From Bifidobacterium breve (GTDB lineage Bacteria > Actinomycetota > Thermoleophilia > Gaiellales > F1-60-MAGs149): a stretch of DNA of 44,222 bases. Within the stretch, counting starts at the first letter, position 1; every line of letters starts with the position of its first letter. The position numbers and the translations under genes were made by a program. The DNA lies in NCBI GenBank assembly GCA_945861955.1, contig CAMAWJ010000002.1, forward strand, positions 1 to 44,222. Reading direction: 5' to 3'. This document shows positions 11,034 through 33,220 of this stretch, piece by piece. The notes beneath the pieces were generated by a model. The model was not told the origin of the DNA, did not search any database, and saw only the letters and a program-made list of their open reading frames with translations.

Positions 11034-11106
11034 TTCGACATGGAGCGCGGCGCCTGAGTTGATTCCGGCGTAGTGCAGTTCTGGGCGAGCTCGCGCCCTT
11101 AGTTTT

Positions 11107-13377: not shown

Positions 13378-13452
13378 GGAGGCCCTCCCTCACTGTGCGA
13401 ACCGAATTGGCTACATCCTAACGGTGCGGGGCGGCGAGTGCGAGTCTGTGCG

Positions 13453-14019: not shown

Positions 14020-14025
14020 TTGAAT

Positions 14026-14715
14026 CTACTCGCTGGAGTCGTCGCCCGGAGAGTCGTCGCCAGACGCCTCTCCGGCATCGTCGCCCTCGCCGACGAGCGG
14101 AACCTCGCCCTCGGCACCCTCTTCGCCCTCGGTTGTCGCCTCGGACAGGGCGGCACGCGTGACGACACAGGAGCAGACGACAGCGTCGGGATCGCCAGCG
14201 AACTCGTAGCCCGTTCCGGCTGTCAGGTCGCGGATATGAATCGAGTGAGCGATGCGCAGTTCGGTGATGTCGACAACGATCTCAGTCGGCATCGCGCCCG
14301 GCAGAGCAATCACGAGGATCTCGTGCAGCGAATGCTCGATCATGCCGCCGTCGAGCTTGATGCCGTCGGCCTCGCCGACCAGATGCACTGGCACGGGGGC
14401 GGTGATCTTCTCGGTCATCGAGATGGCAATCAGGTCGATGTGCGTGACACGATCACGGACACGATCGATCTCCATCGCCTTGAGAATCGCGTTGACGGGC
14501 TTGTCCTCACCATCGATCACGAGCGAGAGAATCGCGTTGCGACCAGCCTCGCCCATCATCGCGGAGCGCAACTTGACGCGCTCGATCTGGAATGGCAACG
14601 GCTCGCGGCCCTGACCGTACAACACACCAGGAATCACGTCCTGCTTGCGCAGACGCTGGTTCTCGCGCGTCGATGCTGCCTTGCGCTTGGTGATGGTGAG
14701 TGTGGTGTCCGACAT
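14026..14715 (-). CDS. rplY: 50S ribosomal protein L25 / general stress protein Ctc form
   Basis: MSDTTLTITKRKAASTRENQRLRKQDVIPGVLYG is an L25 N-domain, followed by a Ctc-type C-domain and an acidic tail. The start is taken at CAT 14713..14715; the ORF-track extension to 14778 is rejected. Confidence 0.92.
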   Translation of the reverse strand: MSDTTLTITKRKAASTRENQRLRKQDVIPGVLYGQGREPLPFQIERVKLRSAMMGEAGRNAILSLVIDGEDKPVNAILKAMEIDRVRDRVTHIDLIAISMTEKITAPVPVHLVGEADGIKLDGGMIEHSLHEILVIALPGAMPTEIVVDITELRIAHSIHIRDLTAGTGYEFAGDPDAVVCSCVVTRAALSEATTEGEEGAEGEVPLVGEGDDAGEASGDDSPGDDSSE

Positions 14716-14786
14716 GTCAGTTTCGCTCCAGTGAGGTGCGCGGCGCAGTGTACGCGAGGGTGGCGCGCTGTGCGCCATCCGGGGTG

Positions 14787-15563
14787 CTAGCGACCGGTTG
14801 TCGTTCCTGCGCCGCCGTTGCCACCATTGCCACCGTTACCACCAGTGCCGCCCACGGAGCCCATGTTGCCACCAATTGTGGCGCTGAACAGCGACGGGAC
14901 CGGCGTACCACTGGAACCTGTCACGGGTTTGCCCGAACCAGCCATCGTGGCGAGCGTGCCAGCCTGAGCCTGCGCCTTATGGGCACTGATCTGCGCCTTC
15001 ACGTTCGCTGCACTTCCGCCCAGCCCGGAGAGGTACTTGCCAAACAGCTTCTGCGTCGACTTCGACGGGCTGACGGTCGAGCCGACAAAGGCGATCACCT
15101 CTCTCTTACCCGTGATCGAGTGGACCGCGTTGAACTGGAGCAGGCCACTGGTGATGGTGGCGTAGGCCCCCGTACCTGCGGTCAGTATGCCGACGCCCGT
15201 GAAGGTCAGGTGCAGGCGCGTCTGAGCGTACGTCGATGCTGCCAAGCCACTGACGGTGCCGAGGCTGTTGGTGATCGTGAAGGTCGTCTCGGCAACACCG
15301 GCCTTGGGGTGCAGCGTGTAGGTCAGCTTGATCGTGCCGGAGCCGATTGGGCTGCCTTGGACGGTGCCTTCATCGTTGAGCACGGTTGGGCTGGTAATCG
15401 AGGCGAGGTGCGTCTTGCCGAGGATGATCACGCCAGCACCCTTGGTCGGTGCAGTTGCCTGCATAAGGCCACCAGTGGCGCCCGCAAAGGCAGGCAGAGC
15501 GAGCAGGGCGAGACTGACGCCCGAGAGGACGGCGATGGTACGCAGCGGAGTGATGGAAGGCAT
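14787..15563 (-). CDS. Secreted hypothetical protein with a Gly/Asn-rich C-terminal tail
   Basis: 258 aa from CAT at 15561..15563, with an AGGAG RBS overlapping the upstream sulfatase stop. Signal peptide MPSITPLRTIAVLSGVSLALLALPAFA (no lipobox Cys). C-terminus GGNMGSVGGTGGNGGNGGNGGAGTTTGR. The ORF-track extension to 15845 is rejected. Confidence 0.7.
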   Translation of the reverse strand: MPSITPLRTIAVLSGVSLALLALPAFAGATGGLMQATAPTKGAGVIILGKTHLASITSPTVLNDEGTVQGSPIGSGTIKLTYTLHPKAGVAETTFTITNSLGTVSGLAASTYAQTRLHLTFTGVGILTAGTGAYATITSGLLQFNAVHSITGKREVIAFVGSTVSPSKSTQKLFGKYLSGLGGSAANVKAQISAHKAQAQAGTLATMAGSGKPVTGSSGTPVPSLFSATIGGNMGSVGGTGGNGGNGGNGGAGTTTGR

Positions 15564-15574
15564 TGTCAGATCTC

Positions 15575-17185
15575 CTAGAGCGGCTGCAAACGGGTGGACT
15601 TGATCGTCTGCAACTTCCTCATTAGTCGCAAGAACTGCACGTCTTGGGCAGGCGTTCGGTCGTACGAGGCATGCGCGATGTTGACGGTCTCGAGCGGATC
15701 GGTCTTGAGGTCGTACATCTCGAACTCGCTCGGCACATCGCCCGTTGCATCGTAGTACTCGGCGAACTTCCAGCGCTTCTCGCGAAACGAGACGATGTGC
15801 TGCGGCGGTGGGATGTACGGCCCGCTGGCCTGGCCAGACTGCCAATCGTCATAGGTGAAGATGATCTCGCTCTGGACCGGCTTGCTCTTCGGGTTGAGCA
15901 CGATCGACGAGTAGTCGACGCCCTCCCACGGTGCCTGCGCGGCGCTTGGTGCGCTAAAGAGGTTGGCAATCGTCGGCAGAAAGTCGACGTGCGAGACGAG
16001 CGCGTCACTACGCACGGGGCGCTTGTAGAGGTTCGGGTTCGAGTAGATCAGCGGAACGTTGATCGCCTCTTCGTAGAAGTTGAAGTTCTTCTGGCGCATC
16101 CCACCATGGGCAACGCCGAGTTCGCCGTGGTCAGCCGTCTTGATCACGAGCGTATTGCCGAGCAGATTCTGGTTGGTCAGAGCACCGAGAATGTTGACGA
16201 GGTAGGCGTCCGACGACTTCATCAGGTTGCCGTAGAAGTTGATGTAGTTGCGCTTCTTCCTGGCCGTGTTGAGTACGCCGAGGCCGGCTGAGAGCTTGAG
16301 GAAGATCTGCTGCGCACGCGGCTTGGTCGAGAGGTCTTCATTGACGGTGGCTGGCAGGCCAATGTCGCCTTCGATCCACGTGGTGTCGTAGCCGGAGTCC
16401 TTCAGGCTCTTCGGATACTCGAGGACATCGTGCGGATTGACGAGCGAGACGATCAGGAAGAACGGCTGCTGCGTCGCGGCATACGAGTTGAGGAACTGCA
16501 GAGCGCCTTCGTTACCGTCGGTGTAGTTCGACGTCTGGCTGCCCATAAAGCGCGCGTCATTCTGCGCAGTGCCGCCACCCATCTCGGGGAAGCTCTGGTT
16601 GGCTCCGGCATCGTCCGGGTTCCAGCGATTGAAGGAGTAGGCGTTGAGGTCGGCCGACGTCCATTCGGCACCGGCGGGCTTGCTGCAGTGCCACTTGCCC
16701 TTGTAGACCACGGTGTAGCCGGCGGCCGACATGACCGTCGCGATGTTCGCGAGGCTGGTCGAGAGCGGTACCTGATCGGGATACGTCGGATAGGGCATGT
16801 TCGACTCGAGCGTGTACTTGACGCCGTGCTGTGCGGGGAAGTAGCCGGACATCAGCGTCGAGCGAGCTGGCGAGCACATGCAGGCGTTCGTAAAGGCGTT
16901 GGTGAACGTCAGTCCGTGGCGCTGGAGCTGCGTCATGCCCGGCATGTTCTTCTGTGCCCAACCGATTGGAAAGTGCTGGATGGCGCGCTCTTGGTCGGTG
17001 ATGAACATCACGACGTTCATGCCCTTGAGGGTGGTCGGAGCGGGCTGCTTGGCCGCCTCAGCCACGCCAGGCAGGCCCAGTAGTCCACCGAGACCAAGCG
17101 CGCCAGCGGCAGCGGCGGTGCGCGCCAAAAAGCTCTGACGATCGATGGCGGTGGCGTCGAACTCGGCGTCGTTATGCTCAGTCAT
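15575..17185 (-). CDS. Sulfatase family protein (Cys-type, exported), paralogue A
   Basis: NVVMFITDQ metal-site start, CxPxR formylglycine motif in NACMCSPARSTLMSG, C-terminal TADHGE, and a Tat-like signal DRQSFLARTAAAAGALGLGGLLGLPGVAEA. The start is taken at the conserved MTEH (CAT 17183..17185); the alternative GTG start is at 17206. Confidence 0.9.
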   Translation of the reverse strand: MTEHNDAEFDATAIDRQSFLARTAAAAGALGLGGLLGLPGVAEAAKQPAPTTLKGMNVVMFITDQERAIQHFPIGWAQKNMPGMTQLQRHGLTFTNAFTNACMCSPARSTLMSGYFPAQHGVKYTLESNMPYPTYPDQVPLSTSLANIATVMSAAGYTVVYKGKWHCSKPAGAEWTSADLNAYSFNRWNPDDAGANQSFPEMGGGTAQNDARFMGSQTSNYTDGNEGALQFLNSYAATQQPFFLIVSLVNPHDVLEYPKSLKDSGYDTTWIEGDIGLPATVNEDLSTKPRAQQIFLKLSAGLGVLNTARKKRNYINFYGNLMKSSDAYLVNILGALTNQNLLGNTLVIKTADHGELGVAHGGMRQKNFNFYEEAINVPLIYSNPNLYKRPVRSDALVSHVDFLPTIANLFSAPSAAQAPWEGVDYSSIVLNPKSKPVQSEIIFTYDDWQSGQASGPYIPPPQHIVSFREKRWKFAEYYDATGDVPSEFEMYDLKTDPLETVNIAHASYDRTPAQDVQFLRLMRKLQTIKSTRLQPL

Positions 17186-17255
17186 GGAGCGGAGTCTAGT
17201 GGGCACAACATTGTTGCGTCCGCCGGTAGTGAGCAGGAATGCTCTCGGAGTTGTC

Positions 17256-17283
17256 GGCTGAGACCACCCATGTGGTCTCAGCC
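17256..17283 (-). terminator. Hairpin GGCTGAGACCAC-CCAT-GTGGTCTCAGCC (12-bp stem) between the two sulfatase genes; extended outer stem 17235..17244 / 17284..17293
   Basis: Perfect 12-bp stem with a 4-nt loop. The outer 10-bp stem AGGAATGCTC/GAGCATTCCT overlaps the stop codon of paralogue B (17292..17294). There is no U-tract, so it may be a terminator, an attenuator or an mRNA-stability element. Confidence 0.45.
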
Positions 17284-17291
17284 GAGCATTC

Positions 17292-18941
17292 CTACGTCAG
17301 CGGCTGGAGTCGCGTCGACTTGATCCGCTGGAGCTTCAGGTACAGGCGCTTGAACTGCCGCTTCTGCGCGGGGGTCCGAGGGTACGACCTGTGGGCAATG
17401 TTGTCTCGCTCGAGTGGGTCGGTCAGTAGGTCGTACATCTCGAATTGGCTCGGCACGTTGCCGTCGGCGTCGTAGTACTCCGCAAACTTCCAGCGCTTCT
17501 CGCGGAACGAGACAATGTGTTGCGGCGGCGGAACGTACGGGCCCTGGTCCTGGCCGCACTGTGAGTCGTCATAGGTAAAGATGATCTCGTCCTGGACGGA
17601 CTTCGCATTGGGGTTGAGTACGAGCGACGAGTAGTCGACGCCTTGCCAGGCAGCCTTTGCCGAGTCCGGCGCGCTGAAGAGGCTGGCGAGGGTTGGCAGC
17701 AGGTCGATGTGCGACACCAGCGCGTCGGTCTGGAAGGCGCGCTTGTACAGCTTCGGGCTCGACCAAATCATCGGAATCCGAATCGTCTCTTCGTAGAAGT
17801 TGAAGCTCTTCTGGATCATGTTGCCGTGGGTGAGCCCCATCTCGCCGTGGTCGGACGTGCGGATGATCACGGTGTTGTCGAACAGGGTCTCGCCATATTT
17901 CGAACCGTTCTTGGGCCTCTGTTTTGCCCCCTTGAGCGCAGCGATCACGTTGACGAGGTACTCGTCGGCCCACTTGATCAGATTGCCGTAGAAGTTGAGG
18001 TAGTTGAGCTTCTTCTGGCGCGTATTAATCGGACCGAGTGCCATCGAGAGCTTTTGAAAGAAGGCCTGCGCATTGGGCTTCGTCGAGAGATCCTCATCGT
18101 TGGTGACCGGTATCCGCATGTCGCCTTCCAGCCACACGTCGCTGTAGCCAGCCTTCGTGAAGTTGTTCGGATAGGCCAGCACGTCGTGCGGATTGACGAG
18201 CGAGATGATCAGGAAGAACGGCTTCTCTTTTGCCGCATCGGAGCGAATGAACTGCAGGATGCCTTCGTTGCCGTCCGTGTAGTCATCGGTCTCCGCACCC
18301 ATGTAGCGCGCGTCGTTCTGCGCTTGGCCACCACCCATCTCGGGGATGCTCTGGTCGGCGCCCGCGTCGTCGGGATTCCACCGCTGCCAACCGTAGGCCT
18401 GTAGGTCGGCAGGCGTCCACTTGCCAGCAGCCGGGTTGTACTTACTGATGTGCCACTTGCCCTTGTAGATCACCTGATAACCGGCCGCCGTCATGACGGT
18501 GGCGATGTTGGTGAGGTTCGTCGAGAGCGGAATCTGCGTCGGGTAGTCCTCGACTGGCATGCCCTCTTCGAGCGTGGCCGTGACGTTGTGCTGCGCCGGA
18601 AAGAGTCCAGTCATCAGCGTGGCGCGGGCGGGCGAGCACATGCACGCGTTCGTGAACGCGTTGTTAAACGTGATGCCGTTCTTCTGGAGCGACGTGAAGC
18701 CCGGCAGATTCTTCTGTGCCCAACCAATTGGGAAGTGCTGTGTCGCACGCTCTTGGTCGGTGATGAACATCACGACGTTCATGCCGTTGAGGTTGCGCGC
18801 TGCCTTGGTTTCGGCCCCCGCAATGCCAGGCAGGCCGACGAGGCCGCCGAGGCCAAGGGCACCCGCGGCCGCTGCGGTACGGGCGAGGAAGCTCTGTCGG
18901 TTGATGCCGGGGGCTTCGTCGAGATCAGTGTGTTCGGTCAT
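17292..18941 (-). CDS. Sulfatase family protein (Cys-type, exported), paralogue B
   Basis: 549 aa from the conserved MTEH start (CAT 18939..18941). It has the same motifs as paralogue A (NVVMFITDQ, NACMCSPARATLMTG, TSDHGE) and the Tat-like signal NRQSFLARTAAAAGALGLGGLVGLPGIAGA. The 735-aa ORF-track version is rejected: its extension is Arg-rich and overlaps prs. Confidence 0.9.
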   Translation of the reverse strand: MTEHTDLDEAPGINRQSFLARTAAAAGALGLGGLVGLPGIAGAETKAARNLNGMNVVMFITDQERATQHFPIGWAQKNLPGFTSLQKNGITFNNAFTNACMCSPARATLMTGLFPAQHNVTATLEEGMPVEDYPTQIPLSTNLTNIATVMTAAGYQVIYKGKWHISKYNPAAGKWTPADLQAYGWQRWNPDDAGADQSIPEMGGGQAQNDARYMGAETDDYTDGNEGILQFIRSDAAKEKPFFLIISLVNPHDVLAYPNNFTKAGYSDVWLEGDMRIPVTNDEDLSTKPNAQAFFQKLSMALGPINTRQKKLNYLNFYGNLIKWADEYLVNVIAALKGAKQRPKNGSKYGETLFDNTVIIRTSDHGEMGLTHGNMIQKSFNFYEETIRIPMIWSSPKLYKRAFQTDALVSHIDLLPTLASLFSAPDSAKAAWQGVDYSSLVLNPNAKSVQDEIIFTYDDSQCGQDQGPYVPPPQHIVSFREKRWKFAEYYDADGNVPSQFEMYDLLTDPLERDNIAHRSYPRTPAQKRQFKRLYLKLQRIKSTRLQPLT

Positions 18942-19018
18942 GCGGCCCAACATACCAGCGAGCCACACTCGACACCAAGCCCCCGGTACGCCGATGTAAG
19001 GGTGCCCACGTGGGGCGA

Positions 19019-20050
19019 CTAGAAGAGCTGGTTCTCGCCGTCGAAGAGGTTCGAGACGGAGCCCTCGCGGAAGACCTCTTCGATCGTCTGCGCCAAGATT
19101 GCGTCGACGGGGAGCACGCGGATGCGGCTGTCGACGGCGCTCGGGTGGATCGGCACGGTGTCGCAGACGACCACTTCGTGGAGGACGGAGTCCTTGATGC
19201 GTTGAAGCGCTGGCTCCGACAAGATCGCGTGAGTCGCGCAGGCCACAACCTGCGTCGCGCCGGCCTGGTGGACGGCTTCGGCGCCTGCGCAGAGCGTGCC
19301 GGCGGTGTCGATGATGTCGTCGGAGATGATCGCCTTCTTGCCCGCCACGTCGCCGATGATGGCGGCGACGCGCGCCTTGCCATGTTCGGGCCGCAGCTTG
19401 GCGATGATCGCGACGTCGGCGTCGAGCATCTCTGCGAAGCGCGTGGCCAGCTTGGCGCGGCCCGCATCTGCCGAGACGACGACGGTGCCTTCTCCGCACA
19501 GGCCCATGTCGCGGAAGTGGCGCGCAAACATCGGCAGCGCCGTCATGTGATCGACGGGGCCGTCAAAGAAGCCTTGGACTTGGCCGGCGTGAAGATCCAT
19601 CGTCAGGACGCGATCGATGCCGGACGCGCGTAGCAGCGTGGCGACGAGGCGGGCGGTGATGGGCTCGCGCGGCGCAGACTTCTTGTCTTGGCGCGCATAC
19701 GGGTACCACGGGATGACCGCCGTGACGCGCTTGGCCGAGCCGAGGATGGCCGCGTCGGCCATGATCATCAGTTCCATCAGGTTGCGATTGACGGGGTTGA
19801 CGCAGCTCTGCACGAGGAAGACGTCGGCCCCGCGGACAGACTCTTCGAAGCGCGCGTAGATCTCGCCGTTGGTGAACGTCTTGATCGTCGTCTGGCCGAG
19901 ACCAACACCAAGACGGTCGGAGATGCGCTGCGCGAGGTCTTGATTCGAGCGGCCCGAGAAGATCATCAGACGCTTGCTGGGCGAATGCTCGAATGACGCC
20001 AGTGGAGTGGTCGCTTCGGAGGTAACCTCGAACAACTTGGAATCAGGCAT
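19019..20050 (-). CDS. prs: Ribose-phosphate pyrophosphokinase
   Basis: RLMIFSGRSNQDLAQRIS..., DLHAGQVQGFF, and the PRPP loop KKAIISDDIIDTAGT. The start MPDSKLF has a GAGGAAG RBS and overlaps the glmU stop by 8 nt. The ORF-track extension to 20149 is rejected. Confidence 0.95.
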   Translation of the reverse strand: MPDSKLFEVTSEATTPLASFEHSPSKRLMIFSGRSNQDLAQRISDRLGVGLGQTTIKTFTNGEIYARFEESVRGADVFLVQSCVNPVNRNLMELMIMADAAILGSAKRVTAVIPWYPYARQDKKSAPREPITARLVATLLRASGIDRVLTMDLHAGQVQGFFDGPVDHMTALPMFARHFRDMGLCGEGTVVVSADAGRAKLATRFAEMLDADVAIIAKLRPEHGKARVAAIIGDVAGKKAIISDDIIDTAGTLCAGAEAVHQAGATQVVACATHAILSEPALQRIKDSVLHEVVVCDTVPIHPSAVDSRIRVLPVDAILAQTIEEVFREGSVSNLFDGENQLF

Positions 20051-21383
20051 CGCGCTTCCTCTTCGCATAGTGCTCTTTGATGACTTGGCGTGCTCGGGCG
20101 ATGCCGAGCGCGCCTGCCGGTACATCATCGGTGATGATGGACCCGGCACCGGTCACTGCATCGTCACCGAGCTCGACGGGGGCCACGAAAACCGTGTCCG
20201 AACCGGTCCGAACGCGGTCGCCAATCGTCGTCTGATGCTTGTTCGTACCGTCGTAGTTGGCAGTGATGTTGCCGGCGCCGATGTTGGAATCCTCGCCGAC
20301 CGTGGCGTCGCCAACGTAGGAGAGGTGGGGAATCTTGCTGCGTGCACCGAGCGTCGTGTTCTTCGTCTCGGCGAAGGCGCCGACGCGCGCATCGGCGTGG
20401 AGGTGCGTGCCAGCACGTAGGTGCGCGAAGGGCCCGGCCTGTGCGCCGGAGTCGAGCACCGCGTCGGTCAGGACGCTGTGGGGTCCGGCTTCGGCGCCCG
20501 CGGCAAGGCTCGTCGTGCCGCGCAAAATCGTGAAGGGGTGGACGACGCAGTCGGGGGCCAGCGTGACGGTCGCGTCGATGTAGGTCGTGGCCGGGTCGAC
20601 GATGCCCGCACCGGCCAGGAGATGCTGTTCGACGATGCGGGTGCGCAAGAGTTCGGCGGCCTCGGCCAATTCGACCCGCGTATTGACGCCGAGCAGCAGC
20701 GACGCGTCGGTGACTTCGGCGGCGCGCACCGCGAGCCCGGCGGCGGCAATCGCAGGCACCACATCGGGCAGGTAGTACTCGCCCTGCGCATTGTCGTTCG
20801 TCAGTCCGGCGAGCGTGAGGCGGAGTGCATCAGCGTCAAACACGTAGAGACCCGCGTTGGCCTCGGTCACCTCGAGCTCGGCGGCGGTCGCATCCTTGGC
20901 CTCGACGATGCGAATGCCGGCGTCGGAACGCAGCACGCGGCCGTAGCCACCCGGCTCGGCGACCCGGAAGGTCGCGGCGGTACCAGCCGCGCCACTCTCG
21001 ACATGGGCGGCGAGCAGGTCGTTGAGCAGTTCCGCCGTCAGCAGCGGCGTGTCGCCCGAGACGATCAAGACATCGCCGGCAAACCCTTCGAGGGCTGGCA
21101 CGGCGCAGCGCACAGCGTCGCCCGTGCCGAGTTGGTCGGGCTGGACCACGATCGCGGCGTCACCAACGACAGCGGCAACGGCGTCGGCCTCGGTCGGCGG
21201 AACGACGACGACGATCCGGTCCGCACCCGCCTCACGGACGGCGGCGAGCACCCAGCCAAGCAGCGGGCGACCCCAGATCGGATGCAGCACCTTTGGCAGA
21301 GCAGAGCGCATGCGCGTGCCCTTGCCACCGGCCATCACGATGCAGGCGAGAGGACGAGCAGGGGTGGCAGTAGGGCGCGACAT
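20043..21383 (-). CDS. glmU: Bifunctional UDP-N-acetylglucosamine pyrophosphorylase / glucosamine-1-phosphate N-acetyltransferase
   Basis: N-terminal nucleotidyltransferase motif MAGGKGTRM, a C-terminal left-handed beta-helix hexapeptide-repeat region (IGEDSNIGAGNITANYDG), 446 aa, and a position upstream of prs. Confidence 0.95.
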   Translation of the reverse strand: MSRPTATPARPLACIVMAGGKGTRMRSALPKVLHPIWGRPLLGWVLAAVREAGADRIVVVVPPTEADAVAAVVGDAAIVVQPDQLGTGDAVRCAVPALEGFAGDVLIVSGDTPLLTAELLNDLLAAHVESGAAGTAATFRVAEPGGYGRVLRSDAGIRIVEAKDATAAELEVTEANAGLYVFDADALRLTLAGLTNDNAQGEYYLPDVVPAIAAAGLAVRAAEVTDASLLLGVNTRVELAEAAELLRTRIVEQHLLAGAGIVDPATTYIDATVTLAPDCVVHPFTILRGTTSLAAGAEAGPHSVLTDAVLDSGAQAGPFAHLRAGTHLHADARVGAFAETKNTTLGARSKIPHLSYVGDATVGEDSNIGAGNITANYDGTNKHQTTIGDRVRTGSDTVFVAPVELGDDAVTGAGSIITDDVPAGALGIARARQVIKEHYAKRKRDA

Positions 21384-21406
21384 CCGGCCTACCCGACTTT
21401 AGTCCG

Positions 21407-21874
21407 TCAATCGGCAGACGTGCTGTTGGCTGCGACGATGGCGGCTTTGAGGTCCGCGGTCGAGAGGAACGTCAGGCCGAGCGTCGCGTCGTGGCGAAAG
21501 CGAATCACGCCCTCGCCGTCGATCACGAAGGTCGTGCGCTTCGTACCGATAATCGGCGCCTTGGCACCGTAGAGCGCGGCGACGCTGCGGTCGGGGTCGG
21601 CGAGCAGCGGGATCGTCAGCCCGTACTTGGCGGTGAAGGACTCCTTCGAGGCGAGATTTTTGCCCGAGATGCCCACGATCGTCGCGTCGAGATCGGCGAA
21701 CTCGGCCCACTCGTCGCGATACGTGCACAACTGCTTGGTGCAGACCTTCGTGTCGTCACCGGGATAGAACACCAGCGCGACGGTCTTCCCGCGATGCTCG
21801 GCAAGACGAAACGTGCCGTTCGTAGCTGCAAGTGCGAAGTCGGGTGCGGTGTCGCCGACAGTGGGGCTGGCCAT
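21407..21874 (-). CDS. bcp: Peroxiredoxin, Bcp (AhpC/TSA family thiol peroxidase)
   Basis: GDTAPDF...VALVFYPGDDTKVCTKQLC: the peroxidatic Cys has a second Cys five residues later, as in Bcp/PrxQ. 155 aa. GGAGG RBS. Confidence 0.92.
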   Translation of the reverse strand: MASPTVGDTAPDFALAATNGTFRLAEHRGKTVALVFYPGDDTKVCTKQLCTYRDEWAEFADLDATIVGISGKNLASKESFTAKYGLTIPLLADPDRSVAALYGAKAPIIGTKRTTFVIDGEGVIRFRHDATLGLTFLSTADLKAAIVAANSTSAD

Positions 21875-21936
21875 GAGGAACCTCCGGAGGGGTGCGCTTT
21901 GATCTTCGCACGCTTTGTGATCTTGGCTCCCCTGAT

Positions 21937-21967
21937 TGTCCAGATCGGGCCTGACCCCTTCTGGACA
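21937..21967. repeat. 31-nt stem-loop element TGTCCAGATCGGGCCTGACCCCTTCTGGACA, second member of the family seen at 11003..11033
   Basis: 8-bp stem TGTCCAGA/TCTGGACA around a GGGCCTGACCCC core. It has the same length, ends and orientation as 11003..11033, with three compensatory stem changes. Confidence 0.6.
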
Positions 21968-22078
21968 TTGAGTGGGGTCAGACCGCTTCGGGGATGCGCT
22001 TCGGGGGCAGACCCCTTGGGCGGAGTGGGGTTAGACCCCTCCCGCGCATGCGATGCATGCGCTTCAGGGTCAGACCCC
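21946..22078. repeat. Array of five degenerate copies of the 13-nt dyad motif GGGGTCAGACCCC (left half-junction)
   Basis: Copies at 21946..21958, 21974..21986, 22003..22015, 22027..22039 and 22066..22078. An embedded 24-nt direct repeat (21994..22017 vs 22057..22080) is 22/24 identical. Confidence 0.8.
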
Positions 22079-22144
22079 TTAGACAGGGTTGTTGGGGGGT
22101 TGGGGTCCCCCGGGGGACCCCAACCCCCCAACAACCCTGTCTAA

Positions 22145-22277
22145 GGGGTCTGACCCTGAAGCGCATGCATCGCATGCGCGGGAGGGGTCTAACCCCACTC
22201 CGCCCAAGGGGTCTGCCCCCGAAGCGCATCCCCGAAGCGGTCTGACCCCACTCAATGTCCAGAAGGGGTCAGGCCCG
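22145..22277. repeat. Mirror copy of the five-copy 13-nt dyad motif array (right half-junction)
   Basis: Exact reverse complement of 21946..22078. Confidence 0.8.
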
Positions 22278-22286
22278 ATCTGGACA
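22256..22286. repeat. Mirror copy of the 31-nt stem-loop element
   Basis: Exact reverse complement of 21937..21967 (TGTCCAGAAGGGGTCAGGCCCGATCTGGACA). Confidence 0.6.
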
Positions 22287-22348
22287 ATCAGGGGAGCCAA
22301 GATCACAAAGCGTGCGAAGATCAAAGCGCACCCCTCCGGAGGTTCCTC

Positions 22349-22816
22349 ATGGCCAGCCCCACTGTCGGCGACACCGCACCCGACTTCGCACTTGCAGCTA
22401 CGAACGGCACGTTTCGTCTTGCCGAGCATCGCGGGAAGACCGTCGCGCTGGTGTTCTATCCCGGTGACGACACGAAGGTCTGCACCAAGCAGTTGTGCAC
22501 GTATCGCGACGAGTGGGCCGAGTTCGCCGATCTCGACGCGACGATCGTGGGCATCTCGGGCAAAAATCTCGCCTCGAAGGAGTCCTTCACCGCCAAGTAC
22601 GGGCTGACGATCCCGCTGCTCGCCGACCCCGACCGCAGCGTCGCCGCGCTCTACGGTGCCAAGGCGCCGATTATCGGTACGAAGCGCACGACCTTCGTGA
22701 TCGACGGCGAGGGCGTGATTCGCTTTCGCCACGACGCGACGCTCGGCCTGACGTTCCTCTCGACCGCGGACCTCAAAGCCGCCATCGTCGCAGCCAACAG
22801 CACGTCTGCCGATTGA
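22349..22816 (+). CDS. bcp: Peroxiredoxin Bcp (mirror copy)
   Basis: Exact reverse-complement copy of 21407..21874 with identical translation. ATG at 22349, GGAGG at 22338..22342. Confidence 0.92.
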   Translation: MASPTVGDTAPDFALAATNGTFRLAEHRGKTVALVFYPGDDTKVCTKQLCTYRDEWAEFADLDATIVGISGKNLASKESFTAKYGLTIPLLADPDRSVAALYGAKAPIIGTKRTTFVIDGEGVIRFRHDATLGLTFLSTADLKAAIVAANSTSAD

Positions 22817-22839
22817 CGGACTAAAGTCGGGTAGGCCGG

Positions 22840-24180
22840 ATGTCGCGCCCTACTGCCACCCCTGCTCGTCCTCTCGCCTGCATCGTGATGGCCGGTGGCA
22901 AGGGCACGCGCATGCGCTCTGCTCTGCCAAAGGTGCTGCATCCGATCTGGGGTCGCCCGCTGCTTGGCTGGGTGCTCGCCGCCGTCCGTGAGGCGGGTGC
23001 GGACCGGATCGTCGTCGTCGTTCCGCCGACCGAGGCCGACGCCGTTGCCGCTGTCGTTGGTGACGCCGCGATCGTGGTCCAGCCCGACCAACTCGGCACG
23101 GGCGACGCTGTGCGCTGCGCCGTGCCAGCCCTCGAAGGGTTTGCCGGCGATGTCTTGATCGTCTCGGGCGACACGCCGCTGCTGACGGCGGAACTGCTCA
23201 ACGACCTGCTCGCCGCCCATGTCGAGAGTGGCGCGGCTGGTACCGCCGCGACCTTCCGGGTCGCCGAGCCGGGTGGCTACGGCCGCGTGCTGCGTTCCGA
23301 CGCCGGCATTCGCATCGTCGAGGCCAAGGATGCGACCGCCGCCGAGCTCGAGGTGACCGAGGCCAACGCGGGTCTCTACGTGTTTGACGCTGATGCACTC
23401 CGCCTCACGCTCGCCGGACTGACGAACGACAATGCGCAGGGCGAGTACTACCTGCCCGATGTGGTGCCTGCGATTGCCGCCGCCGGGCTCGCGGTGCGCG
23501 CCGCCGAAGTCACCGACGCGTCGCTGCTGCTCGGCGTCAATACGCGGGTCGAATTGGCCGAGGCCGCCGAACTCTTGCGCACCCGCATCGTCGAACAGCA
23601 TCTCCTGGCCGGTGCGGGCATCGTCGACCCGGCCACGACCTACATCGACGCGACCGTCACGCTGGCCCCCGACTGCGTCGTCCACCCCTTCACGATTTTG
23701 CGCGGCACGACGAGCCTTGCCGCGGGCGCCGAAGCCGGACCCCACAGCGTCCTGACCGACGCGGTGCTCGACTCCGGCGCACAGGCCGGGCCCTTCGCGC
23801 ACCTACGTGCTGGCACGCACCTCCACGCCGATGCGCGCGTCGGCGCCTTCGCCGAGACGAAGAACACGACGCTCGGTGCACGCAGCAAGATTCCCCACCT
23901 CTCCTACGTTGGCGACGCCACGGTCGGCGAGGATTCCAACATCGGCGCCGGCAACATCACTGCCAACTACGACGGTACGAACAAGCATCAGACGACGATT
24001 GGCGACCGCGTTCGGACCGGTTCGGACACGGTTTTCGTGGCCCCCGTCGAGCTCGGTGACGATGCAGTGACCGGTGCCGGGTCCATCATCACCGATGATG
24101 TACCGGCAGGCGCGCTCGGCATCGCCCGAGCACGCCAAGTCATCAAAGAGCACTATGCGAAGAGGAAGCGCGATGCCTGA
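22840..24180 (+). CDS. glmU: Bifunctional GlmU (mirror copy)
   Basis: Exact reverse-complement copy of 20043..21383 with identical translation. Confidence 0.95.
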   Translation: MSRPTATPARPLACIVMAGGKGTRMRSALPKVLHPIWGRPLLGWVLAAVREAGADRIVVVVPPTEADAVAAVVGDAAIVVQPDQLGTGDAVRCAVPALEGFAGDVLIVSGDTPLLTAELLNDLLAAHVESGAAGTAATFRVAEPGGYGRVLRSDAGIRIVEAKDATAAELEVTEANAGLYVFDADALRLTLAGLTNDNAQGEYYLPDVVPAIAAAGLAVRAAEVTDASLLLGVNTRVELAEAAELLRTRIVEQHLLAGAGIVDPATTYIDATVTLAPDCVVHPFTILRGTTSLAAGAEAGPHSVLTDAVLDSGAQAGPFAHLRAGTHLHADARVGAFAETKNTTLGARSKIPHLSYVGDATVGEDSNIGAGNITANYDGTNKHQTTIGDRVRTGSDTVFVAPVELGDDAVTGAGSIITDDVPAGALGIARARQVIKEHYAKRKRDA

Positions 24181-25204
24181 TTCCAAGTTGTTCGAGGTTA
24201 CCTCCGAAGCGACCACTCCACTGGCGTCATTCGAGCATTCGCCCAGCAAGCGTCTGATGATCTTCTCGGGCCGCTCGAATCAAGACCTCGCGCAGCGCAT
24301 CTCCGACCGTCTTGGTGTTGGTCTCGGCCAGACGACGATCAAGACGTTCACCAACGGCGAGATCTACGCGCGCTTCGAAGAGTCTGTCCGCGGGGCCGAC
24401 GTCTTCCTCGTGCAGAGCTGCGTCAACCCCGTCAATCGCAACCTGATGGAACTGATGATCATGGCCGACGCGGCCATCCTCGGCTCGGCCAAGCGCGTCA
24501 CGGCGGTCATCCCGTGGTACCCGTATGCGCGCCAAGACAAGAAGTCTGCGCCGCGCGAGCCCATCACCGCCCGCCTCGTCGCCACGCTGCTACGCGCGTC
24601 CGGCATCGATCGCGTCCTGACGATGGATCTTCACGCCGGCCAAGTCCAAGGCTTCTTTGACGGCCCCGTCGATCACATGACGGCGCTGCCGATGTTTGCG
24701 CGCCACTTCCGCGACATGGGCCTGTGCGGAGAAGGCACCGTCGTCGTCTCGGCAGATGCGGGCCGCGCCAAGCTGGCCACGCGCTTCGCAGAGATGCTCG
24801 ACGCCGACGTCGCGATCATCGCCAAGCTGCGGCCCGAACATGGCAAGGCGCGCGTCGCCGCCATCATCGGCGACGTGGCGGGCAAGAAGGCGATCATCTC
24901 CGACGACATCATCGACACCGCCGGCACGCTCTGCGCAGGCGCCGAAGCCGTCCACCAGGCCGGCGCGACGCAGGTTGTGGCCTGCGCGACTCACGCGATC
25001 TTGTCGGAGCCAGCGCTTCAACGCATCAAGGACTCCGTCCTCCACGAAGTGGTCGTCTGCGACACCGTGCCGATCCACCCGAGCGCCGTCGACAGCCGCA
25101 TCCGCGTGCTCCCCGTCGACGCAATCTTGGCGCAGACGATCGAAGAGGTCTTCCGCGAGGGCTCCGTCTCGAACCTCTTCGACGGCGAGAACCAGCTCTT
25201 CTAG
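24173..25204 (+). CDS. prs: Ribose-phosphate pyrophosphokinase (mirror copy)
   Basis: Exact reverse-complement copy of 19019..20050. ATG at 24173 overlaps the glmU stop at 24178..24180. Confidence 0.95.
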   Translation: MPDSKLFEVTSEATTPLASFEHSPSKRLMIFSGRSNQDLAQRISDRLGVGLGQTTIKTFTNGEIYARFEESVRGADVFLVQSCVNPVNRNLMELMIMADAAILGSAKRVTAVIPWYPYARQDKKSAPREPITARLVATLLRASGIDRVLTMDLHAGQVQGFFDGPVDHMTALPMFARHFRDMGLCGEGTVVVSADAGRAKLATRFAEMLDADVAIIAKLRPEHGKARVAAIIGDVAGKKAIISDDIIDTAGTLCAGAEAVHQAGATQVVACATHAILSEPALQRIKDSVLHEVVVCDTVPIHPSAVDSRIRVLPVDAILAQTIEEVFREGSVSNLFDGENQLF

Positions 25205-25281
25205 TCGCCCCACGTGGGCACCCTTACATCGGCGTACCGGGGGCTTGGTGTCGAGTGTGGCTCGCTGGTATGTTGGGCCGC

Positions 25282-26931
25282 ATGACCGAACACACTGATC
25301 TCGACGAAGCCCCCGGCATCAACCGACAGAGCTTCCTCGCCCGTACCGCAGCGGCCGCGGGTGCCCTTGGCCTCGGCGGCCTCGTCGGCCTGCCTGGCAT
25401 TGCGGGGGCCGAAACCAAGGCAGCGCGCAACCTCAACGGCATGAACGTCGTGATGTTCATCACCGACCAAGAGCGTGCGACACAGCACTTCCCAATTGGT
25501 TGGGCACAGAAGAATCTGCCGGGCTTCACGTCGCTCCAGAAGAACGGCATCACGTTTAACAACGCGTTCACGAACGCGTGCATGTGCTCGCCCGCCCGCG
25601 CCACGCTGATGACTGGACTCTTTCCGGCGCAGCACAACGTCACGGCCACGCTCGAAGAGGGCATGCCAGTCGAGGACTACCCGACGCAGATTCCGCTCTC
25701 GACGAACCTCACCAACATCGCCACCGTCATGACGGCGGCCGGTTATCAGGTGATCTACAAGGGCAAGTGGCACATCAGTAAGTACAACCCGGCTGCTGGC
25801 AAGTGGACGCCTGCCGACCTACAGGCCTACGGTTGGCAGCGGTGGAATCCCGACGACGCGGGCGCCGACCAGAGCATCCCCGAGATGGGTGGTGGCCAAG
25901 CGCAGAACGACGCGCGCTACATGGGTGCGGAGACCGATGACTACACGGACGGCAACGAAGGCATCCTGCAGTTCATTCGCTCCGATGCGGCAAAAGAGAA
26001 GCCGTTCTTCCTGATCATCTCGCTCGTCAATCCGCACGACGTGCTGGCCTATCCGAACAACTTCACGAAGGCTGGCTACAGCGACGTGTGGCTGGAAGGC
26101 GACATGCGGATACCGGTCACCAACGATGAGGATCTCTCGACGAAGCCCAATGCGCAGGCCTTCTTTCAAAAGCTCTCGATGGCACTCGGTCCGATTAATA
26201 CGCGCCAGAAGAAGCTCAACTACCTCAACTTCTACGGCAATCTGATCAAGTGGGCCGACGAGTACCTCGTCAACGTGATCGCTGCGCTCAAGGGGGCAAA
26301 ACAGAGGCCCAAGAACGGTTCGAAATATGGCGAGACCCTGTTCGACAACACCGTGATCATCCGCACGTCCGACCACGGCGAGATGGGGCTCACCCACGGC
26401 AACATGATCCAGAAGAGCTTCAACTTCTACGAAGAGACGATTCGGATTCCGATGATTTGGTCGAGCCCGAAGCTGTACAAGCGCGCCTTCCAGACCGACG
26501 CGCTGGTGTCGCACATCGACCTGCTGCCAACCCTCGCCAGCCTCTTCAGCGCGCCGGACTCGGCAAAGGCTGCCTGGCAAGGCGTCGACTACTCGTCGCT
26601 CGTACTCAACCCCAATGCGAAGTCCGTCCAGGACGAGATCATCTTTACCTATGACGACTCACAGTGCGGCCAGGACCAGGGCCCGTACGTTCCGCCGCCG
26701 CAACACATTGTCTCGTTCCGCGAGAAGCGCTGGAAGTTTGCGGAGTACTACGACGCCGACGGCAACGTGCCGAGCCAATTCGAGATGTACGACCTACTGA
26801 CCGACCCACTCGAGCGAGACAACATTGCCCACAGGTCGTACCCTCGGACCCCCGCGCAGAAGCGGCAGTTCAAGCGCCTGTACCTGAAGCTCCAGCGGAT
26901 CAAGTCGACGCGACTCCAGCCGCTGACGTAG
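25282..26931 (+). CDS. Sulfatase family protein, paralogue B (mirror copy)
   Basis: Exact reverse-complement copy of 17292..18941. ATG at 25282; the alternative ATG is at 25270. Confidence 0.9.
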   Translation: MTEHTDLDEAPGINRQSFLARTAAAAGALGLGGLVGLPGIAGAETKAARNLNGMNVVMFITDQERATQHFPIGWAQKNLPGFTSLQKNGITFNNAFTNACMCSPARATLMTGLFPAQHNVTATLEEGMPVEDYPTQIPLSTNLTNIATVMTAAGYQVIYKGKWHISKYNPAAGKWTPADLQAYGWQRWNPDDAGADQSIPEMGGGQAQNDARYMGAETDDYTDGNEGILQFIRSDAAKEKPFFLIISLVNPHDVLAYPNNFTKAGYSDVWLEGDMRIPVTNDEDLSTKPNAQAFFQKLSMALGPINTRQKKLNYLNFYGNLIKWADEYLVNVIAALKGAKQRPKNGSKYGETLFDNTVIIRTSDHGEMGLTHGNMIQKSFNFYEETIRIPMIWSSPKLYKRAFQTDALVSHIDLLPTLASLFSAPDSAKAAWQGVDYSSLVLNPNAKSVQDEIIFTYDDSQCGQDQGPYVPPPQHIVSFREKRWKFAEYYDADGNVPSQFEMYDLLTDPLERDNIAHRSYPRTPAQKRQFKRLYLKLQRIKSTRLQPLT

Positions 26932-26939
26932 GAATGCTC

Positions 26940-26967
26940 GGCTGAGACCACATGGGTGGTCTCAGCC
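26940..26967 (+). terminator. Hairpin between sulfatase genes (mirror copy)
   Basis: Exact reverse complement of 17256..17283: GGCTGAGACCAC-ATGG-GTGGTCTCAGCC. Confidence 0.45.
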
Positions 26968-27037
26968 GACAACTCCGAGAGCATTCCTGCTCACTACCGG
27001 CGGACGCAACAATGTTGTGCCCACTAGACTCCGCTCC

Positions 27038-28648
27038 ATGACTGAGCATAACGACGCCGAGTTCGACGCCACCGCCATCGATCGTCAGAGCTTTTTGGCG
27101 CGCACCGCCGCTGCCGCTGGCGCGCTTGGTCTCGGTGGACTACTGGGCCTGCCTGGCGTGGCTGAGGCGGCCAAGCAGCCCGCTCCGACCACCCTCAAGG
27201 GCATGAACGTCGTGATGTTCATCACCGACCAAGAGCGCGCCATCCAGCACTTTCCAATCGGTTGGGCACAGAAGAACATGCCGGGCATGACGCAGCTCCA
27301 GCGCCACGGACTGACGTTCACCAACGCCTTTACGAACGCCTGCATGTGCTCGCCAGCTCGCTCGACGCTGATGTCCGGCTACTTCCCCGCACAGCACGGC
27401 GTCAAGTACACGCTCGAGTCGAACATGCCCTATCCGACGTATCCCGATCAGGTACCGCTCTCGACCAGCCTCGCGAACATCGCGACGGTCATGTCGGCCG
27501 CCGGCTACACCGTGGTCTACAAGGGCAAGTGGCACTGCAGCAAGCCCGCCGGTGCCGAATGGACGTCGGCCGACCTCAACGCCTACTCCTTCAATCGCTG
27601 GAACCCGGACGATGCCGGAGCCAACCAGAGCTTCCCCGAGATGGGTGGCGGCACTGCGCAGAATGACGCGCGCTTTATGGGCAGCCAGACGTCGAACTAC
27701 ACCGACGGTAACGAAGGCGCTCTGCAGTTCCTCAACTCGTATGCCGCGACGCAGCAGCCGTTCTTCCTGATCGTCTCGCTCGTCAATCCGCACGATGTCC
27801 TCGAGTATCCGAAGAGCCTGAAGGACTCCGGCTACGACACCACGTGGATCGAAGGCGACATTGGCCTGCCAGCCACCGTCAATGAAGACCTCTCGACCAA
27901 GCCGCGTGCGCAGCAGATCTTCCTCAAGCTCTCAGCCGGCCTCGGCGTACTCAACACGGCCAGGAAGAAGCGCAACTACATCAACTTCTACGGCAACCTG
28001 ATGAAGTCGTCGGACGCCTACCTCGTCAACATTCTCGGTGCTCTGACCAACCAGAATCTGCTCGGCAATACGCTCGTGATCAAGACGGCTGACCACGGCG
28101 AACTCGGCGTTGCCCATGGTGGGATGCGCCAGAAGAACTTCAACTTCTACGAAGAGGCGATCAACGTTCCGCTGATCTACTCGAACCCGAACCTCTACAA
28201 GCGCCCCGTGCGTAGTGACGCGCTCGTCTCGCACGTCGACTTTCTGCCGACGATTGCCAACCTCTTTAGCGCACCAAGCGCCGCGCAGGCACCGTGGGAG
28301 GGCGTCGACTACTCGTCGATCGTGCTCAACCCGAAGAGCAAGCCGGTCCAGAGCGAGATCATCTTCACCTATGACGATTGGCAGTCTGGCCAGGCCAGCG
28401 GGCCGTACATCCCACCGCCGCAGCACATCGTCTCGTTTCGCGAGAAGCGCTGGAAGTTCGCCGAGTACTACGATGCAACGGGCGATGTGCCGAGCGAGTT
28501 CGAGATGTACGACCTCAAGACCGATCCGCTCGAGACCGTCAACATCGCGCATGCCTCGTACGACCGAACGCCTGCCCAAGACGTGCAGTTCTTGCGACTA
28601 ATGAGGAAGTTGCAGACGATCAAGTCCACCCGTTTGCAGCCGCTCTAG
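27038..28648 (+). CDS. Sulfatase family protein, paralogue A (mirror copy)
   Basis: Exact reverse-complement copy of 15575..17185. ATG at 27038; the alternative GTG is at 27017. Confidence 0.9.
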   Translation: MTEHNDAEFDATAIDRQSFLARTAAAAGALGLGGLLGLPGVAEAAKQPAPTTLKGMNVVMFITDQERAIQHFPIGWAQKNMPGMTQLQRHGLTFTNAFTNACMCSPARSTLMSGYFPAQHGVKYTLESNMPYPTYPDQVPLSTSLANIATVMSAAGYTVVYKGKWHCSKPAGAEWTSADLNAYSFNRWNPDDAGANQSFPEMGGGTAQNDARFMGSQTSNYTDGNEGALQFLNSYAATQQPFFLIVSLVNPHDVLEYPKSLKDSGYDTTWIEGDIGLPATVNEDLSTKPRAQQIFLKLSAGLGVLNTARKKRNYINFYGNLMKSSDAYLVNILGALTNQNLLGNTLVIKTADHGELGVAHGGMRQKNFNFYEEAINVPLIYSNPNLYKRPVRSDALVSHVDFLPTIANLFSAPSAAQAPWEGVDYSSIVLNPKSKPVQSEIIFTYDDWQSGQASGPYIPPPQHIVSFREKRWKFAEYYDATGDVPSEFEMYDLKTDPLETVNIAHASYDRTPAQDVQFLRLMRKLQTIKSTRLQPL

Positions 28649-28659
28649 GAGATCTGACA

Positions 28660-29436
28660 ATGCCTTCCATCACTCCGCTGCGTACCATCGCCGTCCTCTC
28701 GGGCGTCAGTCTCGCCCTGCTCGCTCTGCCTGCCTTTGCGGGCGCCACTGGTGGCCTTATGCAGGCAACTGCACCGACCAAGGGTGCTGGCGTGATCATC
28801 CTCGGCAAGACGCACCTCGCCTCGATTACCAGCCCAACCGTGCTCAACGATGAAGGCACCGTCCAAGGCAGCCCAATCGGCTCCGGCACGATCAAGCTGA
28901 CCTACACGCTGCACCCCAAGGCCGGTGTTGCCGAGACGACCTTCACGATCACCAACAGCCTCGGCACCGTCAGTGGCTTGGCAGCATCGACGTACGCTCA
29001 GACGCGCCTGCACCTGACCTTCACGGGCGTCGGCATACTGACCGCAGGTACGGGGGCCTACGCCACCATCACCAGTGGCCTGCTCCAGTTCAACGCGGTC
29101 CACTCGATCACGGGTAAGAGAGAGGTGATCGCCTTTGTCGGCTCGACCGTCAGCCCGTCGAAGTCGACGCAGAAGCTGTTTGGCAAGTACCTCTCCGGGC
29201 TGGGCGGAAGTGCAGCGAACGTGAAGGCGCAGATCAGTGCCCATAAGGCGCAGGCTCAGGCTGGCACGCTCGCCACGATGGCTGGTTCGGGCAAACCCGT
29301 GACAGGTTCCAGTGGTACGCCGGTCCCGTCGCTGTTCAGCGCCACAATTGGTGGCAACATGGGCTCCGTGGGCGGCACTGGTGGTAACGGTGGCAATGGT
29401 GGCAACGGCGGCGCAGGAACGACAACCGGTCGCTAG
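28660..29436 (+). CDS. Secreted hypothetical protein with Gly/Asn-rich tail (mirror copy)
   Basis: Exact reverse-complement copy of 14787..15563. ATG at 28660, AGGAG at 28647..28651. Confidence 0.7.
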   Translation: MPSITPLRTIAVLSGVSLALLALPAFAGATGGLMQATAPTKGAGVIILGKTHLASITSPTVLNDEGTVQGSPIGSGTIKLTYTLHPKAGVAETTFTITNSLGTVSGLAASTYAQTRLHLTFTGVGILTAGTGAYATITSGLLQFNAVHSITGKREVIAFVGSTVSPSKSTQKLFGKYLSGLGGSAANVKAQISAHKAQAQAGTLATMAGSGKPVTGSSGTPVPSLFSATIGGNMGSVGGTGGNGGNGGNGGAGTTTGR

Positions 29437-29507
29437 CACCCCGGATGGCGCACAGCGCGCCACCCTCGCGTACACTGCGCCGCGCACCTCACTGGAGCGA
29501 AACTGAC

Positions 29508-30197: not shown

Positions 30198-30203
30198 ATT
30201 CAA

Positions 30204-30770: not shown

Positions 30771-30845
30771 CGCACAGACTCGCACTCGCCGCCCCGCACC
30801 GTTAGGATGTAGCCAATTCGGTTCGCACAGTGAGGGAGGGCCTCC

Positions 30846-33116: not shown

Positions 33117-33189
33117 AAAACTAAGGGCGCGAGCTCGCCCAGAACTGCACTACGCCGGAATCAACTCAGGCGCCGCGCTCCATGTCGAA

Positions 33190-33220
33190 TGTCACAAAGG
33201 GGTCAGACCCTTTTGTGACA
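33190..33220. terminator. 31-nt dyad/hairpin between convergent genes (mirror copy)
   Basis: Exact reverse complement of 11003..11033 (TGTCACAAAGGGGTCAGACCCTTTTGTGACA). Confidence 0.5.

Follow-up and report, generated by a model that had tools for sequence, protein, structure and literature searches.

A 44-kb palindromic contig from a freshwater Gaiellales/Thermoleophilia bacterium, very probably folded back at a real 56-nt palindrome

Does the hairpin-rich junction at the center of this contig mark the end of a replicon, a real rearrangement of the chromosome, or an error of assembly? The initial annotation had likened it to two replicon ends placed head to head, and had itself named assembler turn-round or snap-back at a hairpin-prone sequence as the alternative. 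We find that the junction is almost certainly not a telomere, not a real junction and not a real feature. Rather, the window, by which we mean the whole stretch of 44,222 nucleotides that was analysed, is very probably a fold-back (whole-contig palindrome) artefact, which arose at a real 56-nt palindrome within a continuous Gaiellales/Thermoleophilia chromosome.

A contig that is its own reverse complement

Reverse-complementing the window gives back the same sequence from end to end, with 0 mismatches, and the axis falls between positions 22111 and 22112 (Table 1). The symmetry is global, not local, and its extent had been understated. Because the whole window is a palindrome, the self-complementarity of the innermost 20 nt (22102..22121, GGGGTCCCCCGGGGGACCCC, with CCCGGG centered on the axis) and the mirror pairing of all motifs follow automatically and are not independent observations. 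The local description itself is accurate. The axis lies outside genes, 237 nt from bcp on both arms (the ATG of bcp is at 22349 and its mirror copy ends at 21874), which leaves a gene-free span of 474 nt (21875..22348). The GCGCATGC-rich near-palindrome at 22044..22062 is present together with its mirror in the right arm, as is the 31-nt stem-loop, which has the form TGTCCAGA-N15-TCTGGACA. Five copies per arm of the 13-nt motif are also found, none of them perfect: each GGGGTCWGACCCC-like copy carries 1-2 mismatches to the consensus. The information content of the palindromic contig is that of one arm plus one junction.

Both outer ends of the window lie within moaA, and the outer end is the same base at which the contig L092 also ends. 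L092 was assembled with MEGAHIT from a different sample and has 1 mismatch to the window over 8331 nt. Their location within moaA and this coincidence identify the outer ends as ordinary graph break points. The window is probably a complete contig.

The right arm reads, outward from the axis, bcp, glmU, prs, two sulfatase genes that are paralogous to each other, a hypothetical gene, the gene for ribosomal protein L25, pth, a gene for a xanthine-dehydrogenase-like molybdoenzyme and a second hypothetical gene, followed by clpB, hspR, dnaJ, bPH, grpE, dnaK, the gene for a 568-aa hypothetical protein, a LigT-like gene and a fragment of moaA. Contigs L001-L008 and L092-L095 are collinear with it at 90-99.99 % identity. 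The arm is ordinary core chromosome of a freshwater Gaiellales/Thermoleophilia bacterium; the closest genomes are freshwater metagenome-assembled genomes (MAGs) that bear these labels, and their Bcp proteins are 97-98 % identical. The exact Bcp protein occurs on at least 23 contigs, and 116 blocks of a metagenome collection match.

Two points that the initial annotation had raised against a telomere are borne out by this gene content. Core housekeeping genes (bcp, glmU, prs, pth and dnaK) flank the site, and the domain search found no terminal-protein or resolvase gene among the genes of the arm: Pfam and NCBIfam profiles gave no signature of either in any gene of the 22-kb arm, and no Tpg/Tap-like gene in the window. 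The three arm genes that belong to no family lack similarity to telomere resolvases or to other proteins. We considered the 568-aa protein as a resolvase and rejected it; it had no match in the PDB at E ≤ 1, and in Pfam at E ≤ 10 it matched only DUFs, insignificantly.

Table 1. Features of the window, with artefactual mirror copies marked as such
Feature	Position	Strand	Evidence or remark
Artefactual mirror copy of the arm	1..22083	-	Exact reverse complement of 22140..44222, 0 mismatches; non-native here
bcp mirror copy, artefactual	21407..21874	-	
Mirror copies of the five REP-like units, artefactual	21946..22078		
Perfect G+C-rich palindrome, 56 nt	22084..22139	.	CAGGGTTGTTGGGGGGTTGGGGTCCCCC and GGGGGACCCCAACCCCCCAACAACCCTG, meeting at the axis 22111/22112; turn-round point
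Right arm, genuine chromosomal segment	22112..44222	+	Pfam/NCBIfam matches; collinear with independent contigs
Five REP-like units, AAGGGGTCTGACCCC type	22145-22157, 22184-22196, 22208-22220, 22237-22249, 22265-22277	+	
GCGCATGCATCGCATGCGC near-palindrome in the repeat array	22161..22179	.	Invariant in all aligned contigs
31-nt stem-loop directly upstream of bcp	22256..22286	+	Conserved in L011 and L012
bcp, AhpC/TSA-family thiol peroxidase, 155 aa	22349..22816	+	PF00578, 2.1e-33
Solitary family copy, longer palindromic form TGTCACAAAGGGGTCAGACCCTTTTGTGACA	33186..33219	.	Between convergent genes
moaA, 5' part, cut by the window end	43567..44222	+	TIGR02666, 5.3e-81, profile positions 1-216 of 336

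The native locus continues past the axis

Six independent metagenome contigs from different samples and projects cross the axis. Five of them (L001, L002, L003, L006 and L008) were retrieved from several metagenome assemblies by an exact look-up of the Bcp protein. The sixth, L091, is the sole match in the JGI metagenome collection to a 29-mer from the right flank, and it reads through as well. The same 29-mer had 0 matches among viral contigs, and thus there is no sign of a phage or plasmid end; the 35-nt center of the palindrome had 0 matches in the JGI collection. All six contigs match the window from bcp to 28 nt past the axis. Beyond the palindrome they run on through ...CTACAACCCACCC-ATG into an amidohydrolase gene on the opposite strand, whose start codon lies 13 nt past the palindrome, and farther out they carry a VapBC pair, BKACE, a methyltransferase and other genes. 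In the window, from 22083 leftwards, the mirror of its own right arm replaces this native flank. Because the six contigs carry the 5' end of the amidohydrolase gene to the left of the palindrome, the left arm of the window is non-native.

The same neighborhood is found in related genomes. In the MAGs L011 and L012, the latter represented by a long-read contig of 115 kb, bcp has an interior position and adjoins the same amidohydrolase gene. The more distant L013 and L014 keep this adjacency too, and in L009 and L010 a Flg_new-domain gene occupies the position instead. Continuation from about 22084 into unique, gene-bearing sequence, which the initial annotation had named as evidence against a replicon end, is what the six contigs display. 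The picture of two replicon ends set head to head does not survive this comparison, as other assemblies of the same lineage continue through the site into the amidohydrolase gene.

Positions 22084..22139 are the only natively palindromic part of the window. The left arm of this palindrome is identical in all six read-through contigs, and its right arm is alike in the window, L005 and L007. Judging from these alignments, the left arm in the window strain is probably the one that is conserved in all other strains. We therefore represent the native locus by a reconstruction with the left flank as in L006 and the right arm as in the window. In this reconstruction, every odd k tested up to 55 gives canonical k-mers that are common to both halves, and no tested k of 57 or more does. 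The 56-mer, taken as single-stranded DNA, is predicted to fold into a perfect hairpin of -35.4 kcal/mol (z = -7.9).

The perfect symmetry is not shared by the contigs that read through. Their exact palindromic core measures 34 nt in L001, L002, L003 and L008, 10 nt in L006 and 6 nt in L091, versus 56 nt in the reconstructed window strain, so that symmetry is lost in 6/6 with a core of at most 34 nt. It is broken by a 1-nt indel (L001, L002, L003 and L008), by two mismatches (L006) or by a 2-nt deletion at the center (L091), and strand-collapsed k-mers persist to k = 55 only in the 56-nt form. Contigs that possess the symmetric right arm (L004/L094, L005, L007 and L093) end within about 25 nt of the axis. 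At their ends within the palindrome, L004 and L093 carry T->G / A->C miscalls, which fit the sequence-specific Illumina errors and assembly gaps known to be triggered by inverted repeats and GGC motifs (PMC3141275).

The five contigs that are closest to the window by identity (L092, L093, L004, L007 and L005; 98.3-99.99 %) include none that crosses the palindrome: four of them (98.3-99.85 %) stop at it or in it, and L092 extends over no more than the outer 8.3 kb of the arm. Of the contigs that read through, L006 comes nearest, at 98.1 % identity to the window. L005, which breaks at the palindrome, and L006, which passes it, have in common the same roughly 40 SNPs relative to the window. They therefore represent one haplotype, and the break depends on the assembly. 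An apparent exact tiling of the arm by L093 and L092 with a 141-nt overlap was discarded after BLAST showed that the array in L093 is about 27 nt short, with 18 mismatches.

Origin of the mirrored arm

The geometry of the palindrome suggests how the contig probably came about. With a palindrome that is exact over 56 nt, the k-mers of its two halves are mutual reverse complements at all odd values of k no larger than 55. A de Bruijn graph that collapses the strands therefore holds them as the same nodes, which form an inverted loop. Reads probably also degrade within the hairpin and leave few or no k-mers to connect the native left flank with the right one. An assembler that enters the palindrome from the bcp side would turn in the loop and leave along the same unitigs on the opposite strand, and the contig that it writes out would consist of 22,111 nt and then the exact reverse complement of these. 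One set of unitigs traversed twice gives perfect self-reverse-complementarity by construction.

Precedents for such contigs exist. Inverted loops lead to palindromic unitigs that SPAdes and MEGAHIT emit whole and that ABySS splits at the center (Rahman & Medvedev 2022, PMC9528984). In Illumina/SPAdes assemblies of M. bovis, contigs that are palindromic throughout were reported and removed as assembly errors (PMC9455707), and those in single-cell assemblies were judged likewise (bioRxiv 10.1101/2023.06.06.543983). Like the palindromic contigs known from de Bruijn assembly, the window has its axis on an exact genomic palindrome at which other assemblers or runs split; it differs from them in the length of its arm, 22 kb. 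Three marks of a fold-back contig are observed here, namely self-reverse-complementarity over the full length, an axis on a palindrome that collapses k-mers, and independent assemblies that pass the axis into unique sequence; to these are added the 56-nt limit of native symmetry and the breaks of other contigs at the same site. The read-through contigs and the exact native palindrome thus favor the turn-round or snap-back that the initial annotation had offered as its alternative. The turn itself probably took place in the graph rather than in chimeric reads.

It is possible, if rather unlikely, that an artefact of this same class had another origin, in which the inverted junction was already present in the molecules or reads and the assembler then followed it faithfully. 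A single-stranded 3' end within the 56-nt palindrome could snap back and be extended during end repair or amplification, or a polymerase could switch templates at the hairpin. The very stable fold of the palindrome in single-stranded form is in keeping with such an origin, as is the collapse of sequence quality within the palindrome in other assemblies. So is the choice of k: if the largest k was 141 (sister contigs have names beginning with k141_), a palindrome of only 56 nt does not by itself produce an inverted loop, and for any largest k above 56 the false junction would have been carried over either from a smaller k or from chimeric reads. Chimeric reads, however, usually make up only a small share and would lose out to true spanning reads unless these were strongly depleted, and the perfect 22-kb symmetry still requires that the graph be traversed twice. 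A sequencing origin of another kind, through a SMRTbell adapter that was missed or a nanopore read of template plus complement, was judged unlikely: the axis would then fall at the end of a random fragment and not precisely at the middle of a native palindrome, and graph traversal is the better fit to an arm of 22 kb with 0 mismatches.

A real fold-back in the sampled strain is very improbable, whether as the hairpin-capped end of a linear chromosome or replicon or in the form of a giant inverted duplication that began at the palindrome. If it were true, the near-identical contigs would stop at the site for a biological and not a technical reason; yet the haplotype common to L005 and L006 breaks in one assembly and not in the other, and the outer end in the middle of a gene is shared between samples. 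In the case of a hairpin telomere, the replicon of this strain would be linear and covalently closed at the center of the palindrome, and the contig would have been read round the tip or from the replicated junction. An end at the exact center would indeed yield an identical sequence, the native palindrome is within the size class of known resolvase targets, and four contigs of 98.3-99.85 % identity stop there. Since the artefact produces the same perfect palindrome round the end, however, this likeness does not discriminate between the two. What does bear on the matter is that members of the lineage at 91-98 % identity are continuous across the site, including the haplotype of a contig that breaks there; that the palindrome is part of a REP-like array in the promoter region between two divergent genes, with start codons 13 nt and 237 nt away; that its symmetry is not conserved among strains, and the related MAGs L011 and L012, in which bcp is internal, do without the palindrome entirely; that no resolvase-like protein is encoded in the arm; and that on its outer sides the contig simply stops within moaA. 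These observations make a hairpin telomere at this site exceedingly improbable.

The comparison with known chromosome ends leads to the same place. The hairpin telomeres of Borrelia (ResT), phage N15 (TelN), Klebsiella phage phiKO2 (TelK) and Agrobacterium (TelA) resemble the window in having a perfect palindrome round the end and a core palindrome a few tens of bp long, a likeness of overall form. They differ from it in that the site in the window is internal, is asymmetric in other strains and is abutted by core housekeeping genes. Streptomyces-type terminal inverted repeats, which are served by Tpg/Tap, likewise have about 150-200 nt dense with short G+C-rich palindromes. In contrast to those ends, the palindromes in the window come from a family that also occupies internal intergenic sites, the region is not terminal, and its flanks are core genes instead of the variable genes of chromosome arms; we find neither end-specific palindromes nor Tpg/Tap genes with non-core flanks. 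Both kinds of telomere require a physical end, and, judged from contigs of the lineage, the junction is not one: six of them run through the site without a break.

A giant inverted duplication would require that, in part of the cell population, fold-back priming repaired a break or a stalled fork at the palindrome; we consider it very unlikely. Short inverted repeats are known to seed large palindromic rearrangements, a form of quasi-palindrome fragility, and the axis falls exactly on a strong hairpin. Against this, assemblers collapse identical repeats, and the two identical 22-kb copies in the contig therefore do not show that two copies exist physically. Both arms end at a single base that is also the end of a contig from an unrelated sample, which points to the geometry of the graph and not to a rearrangement boundary. 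Finally, an inverted copy of dnaK-clpB-glmU-prs would give a dicentric-like, unstable chromosome.

With fold-back during assembly as the preferred explanation, the main value of the locus is in quality control. A palindromic contig doubles every gene, here creating false second loci of dnaK, clpB and glmU. Its likeness to a hairpin telomere or to inverted terminal repeats also invites the false conclusion that a linear element has been recovered whole. Contigs of this kind should be trimmed to a single arm, with the cut at the border of the native palindrome, which here leaves 22084..44222. Palindromic windows in general can be sorted by testing for self-reverse-complementarity and then finding which few tens of bases are palindromic in independent assemblies.

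A REP-like repeat family in the native spacer

The native amidohydrolase gene (- strand) and bcp (+ strand) diverge from a spacer of about 280 nt. In L011 and L012 the spacer measures about 126 nt; relative to them, the window lineage has an insertion of about 165 nt that comprises the 56-nt palindrome and four hairpin units. Units of the array are also present in the read-through contigs, and the density of the motif is far above chance: at up to 2 mismatches, the GGGGTCWGACCCC-like motif occurs 12 times in the window versus 1.48 +/- 1.18 expected, a count that 0/100 shuffles reach. The fifth unit in the window is degenerate (2 mismatches) and lies in the loop of the stem-loop upstream of bcp, and this conserved degenerate copy is the only unit found in the spacers of L011 and L012. 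Because the stem-loop is kept in these two genomes, which have neither palindrome nor array, it is ancestral and lies outside the inserted array. We regard it as a candidate regulatory site of bcp. A scan of 22050..22400 for promoter and terminator consensus sequences found nothing. Rfam matches at 21800..23400 (E ≤ 1) all fell below the gathering threshold and were to models of long hairpins (miRNA precursors, SRP). They are symmetric on both strands and made by the artificial hairpin, and were therefore rejected as RNA genes.

The family extends beyond this spacer. A fuller form of the unit, roughly ATGCGACGAAAGGGGTCWGACCCCTTTCGTCGCAT, recurs in other intergenic regions of the lineage. Besides the solitary copy in the window, internal intergenic copies are found in L001 (2268, 2387 and 2463), L012 (2797 and 2928) and L013 (4440 and 4516), and the fuller form is seen in the GntR-ACAD spacer of L001 and in L014. 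Hairpins of the family occupy at least 4 distinct intergenic loci in DNA of the lineage, versus only 2 matches in 1.2 Mb of unrelated loci. The 56-nt perfect palindrome was seen only at the head of this array and not at the other family sites. From these occurrences, the hairpin density at the junction is real but not specific to an end, and reflects a lineage-specific, dispersed family of intergenic REP-like repeats.

In form, the native array resembles the REP/BIME elements of Proteobacteria, which are short imperfect palindromes, strictly intergenic, dispersed and lineage-specific, and which form arrays with different numbers of copies in closely related strains. The host differs, being here an uncultured Gaiellales/Thermoleophilia lineage. 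The family of freshwater Gaiellales is previously undescribed, and a full-text literature search found no paper that contains the 13-mer motif; as a by-product of the analysis, it is of modest interest. In agreement with the REP/BIME pattern, its units are found at several separate intergenic loci and vary in number between close strains, with four copies within 1 mismatch in the window and most contigs and seven in L091. Tandem Repeats Finder detects no tandem array at the window junction. In L091 it finds a 63-nt unit repeated 2.4 times, and the GCGCATGCATCGCATGCGC near-palindrome is part of this tandemly duplicated unit.

The REP-like unit and its spread

The REP-like palindromic unit consists of a core, GGGGTCWGACCCC, that in many cases is then followed by TTCGTCGCAT. 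It is scattered through the intergenic DNA of freshwater Gaiellales-type contigs, including metagenome contigs that cross the axis and related MAG contigs that keep the amidohydrolase-bcp adjacency (see table). The unit is lineage-specific, and just 2 matches to it were found in 1.2 Mb of unrelated loci. A full-text literature search found no paper containing the motif.

A stem-loop, TGTCCAGA-N15-TCTGGACA, lies ~60 nt upstream of bcp. It is kept in MAGs without the repeat array, and we regard it as a candidate bcp regulatory site.

Location of repeat units, genes and predicted features in the window and in related contigs
Feature	Sequence	Position	Remark
REP-like unit	window	33186..33219	
REP-like unit	L001	2268, 2387, 2463	
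REP-like unit	L012	2797, 2928	
REP-like unit	L013	4440, 4516	
REP-like unit	L014	4127	
Stem-loop	window	22256..22286	
GntR-to-acyl-CoA-dehydrogenase spacer	L001	1974..2494	
GntR-to-acyl-CoA-dehydrogenase spacer	L006	762..835	
Flg_new-domain gene	L009	1225..2757	510 aa
Flg_new-domain gene	L010	920..2452	510 aa
VapB/VapC (PIN) toxin-antitoxin pair	L001	7472..8115	directly past amidohydrolase gene
VapB/VapC (PIN) toxin-antitoxin pair	L006	5163..5797	directly past amidohydrolase gene
tRNA-Gly(tcc) call	window	23223..23313	mirror 20910..21000
NAD-GH ORF	window	38412..41171	plus strand, 919 aa
dnaK	window	39252..41234	minus strand
Sulfatase paralogues	window	~24.7-26.9 kb, 27.0-28.6 kb	tandem

Strain-variable spacers

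The amidohydrolase-bcp spacer is an insertion hot spot; in some strains (L009 and L010) the Flg_new-domain gene replaces the palindrome and repeat array between the two flanking genes. A further repeat insertion that varies by strain is the GntR-to-acyl-CoA-dehydrogenase spacer, which spans ~520 nt in L001, where it contains a 21-nt tandem repeat in ~5 copies together with three REP-like units, but only ~73 nt in L006. Both of these axis-crossing contigs carry the VapB/VapC pair, which is adjoined by a NicO-like gene in L001 but not in L006.

Contig ends in the palindrome and in moaA

Two contigs that stop within the palindrome, L093 (at 1..25) and L004 (at 1..28), display runs of T-to-G and A-to-C substitutions, such that the end reads GGGTGGGGGGGGGGTGGGGGCCCCC rather than the expected GGTTGTTGGGGGGTTGGGGTCCCCC. 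These runs suggest a base-calling failure in the hairpin. At the other extreme, the window ends (44222 and 1) and position 1 of L092 share the identical end base, inside moaA; L092 is an independent MEGAHIT-style contig (k141_806009) from a different sample.

Predicted genes overlapping glmU and dnaK

One ARAGORN prediction, a tRNA-Gly(tcc) of 91 nt, falls within the coding region of glmU. An Rfam search of 21800..23400 (E <= 1) did not find this tRNA, and the call is probably a false positive. We rejected as a gene the ORF matching Pfam NAD-GH (PF10712; 4e-164), a shadow ORF antisense to dnaK (NCBIfam DnaK, 1015 bits). Elsewhere in the arm, the two tandem sulfatase paralogues share 72-73 % nucleotide identity.
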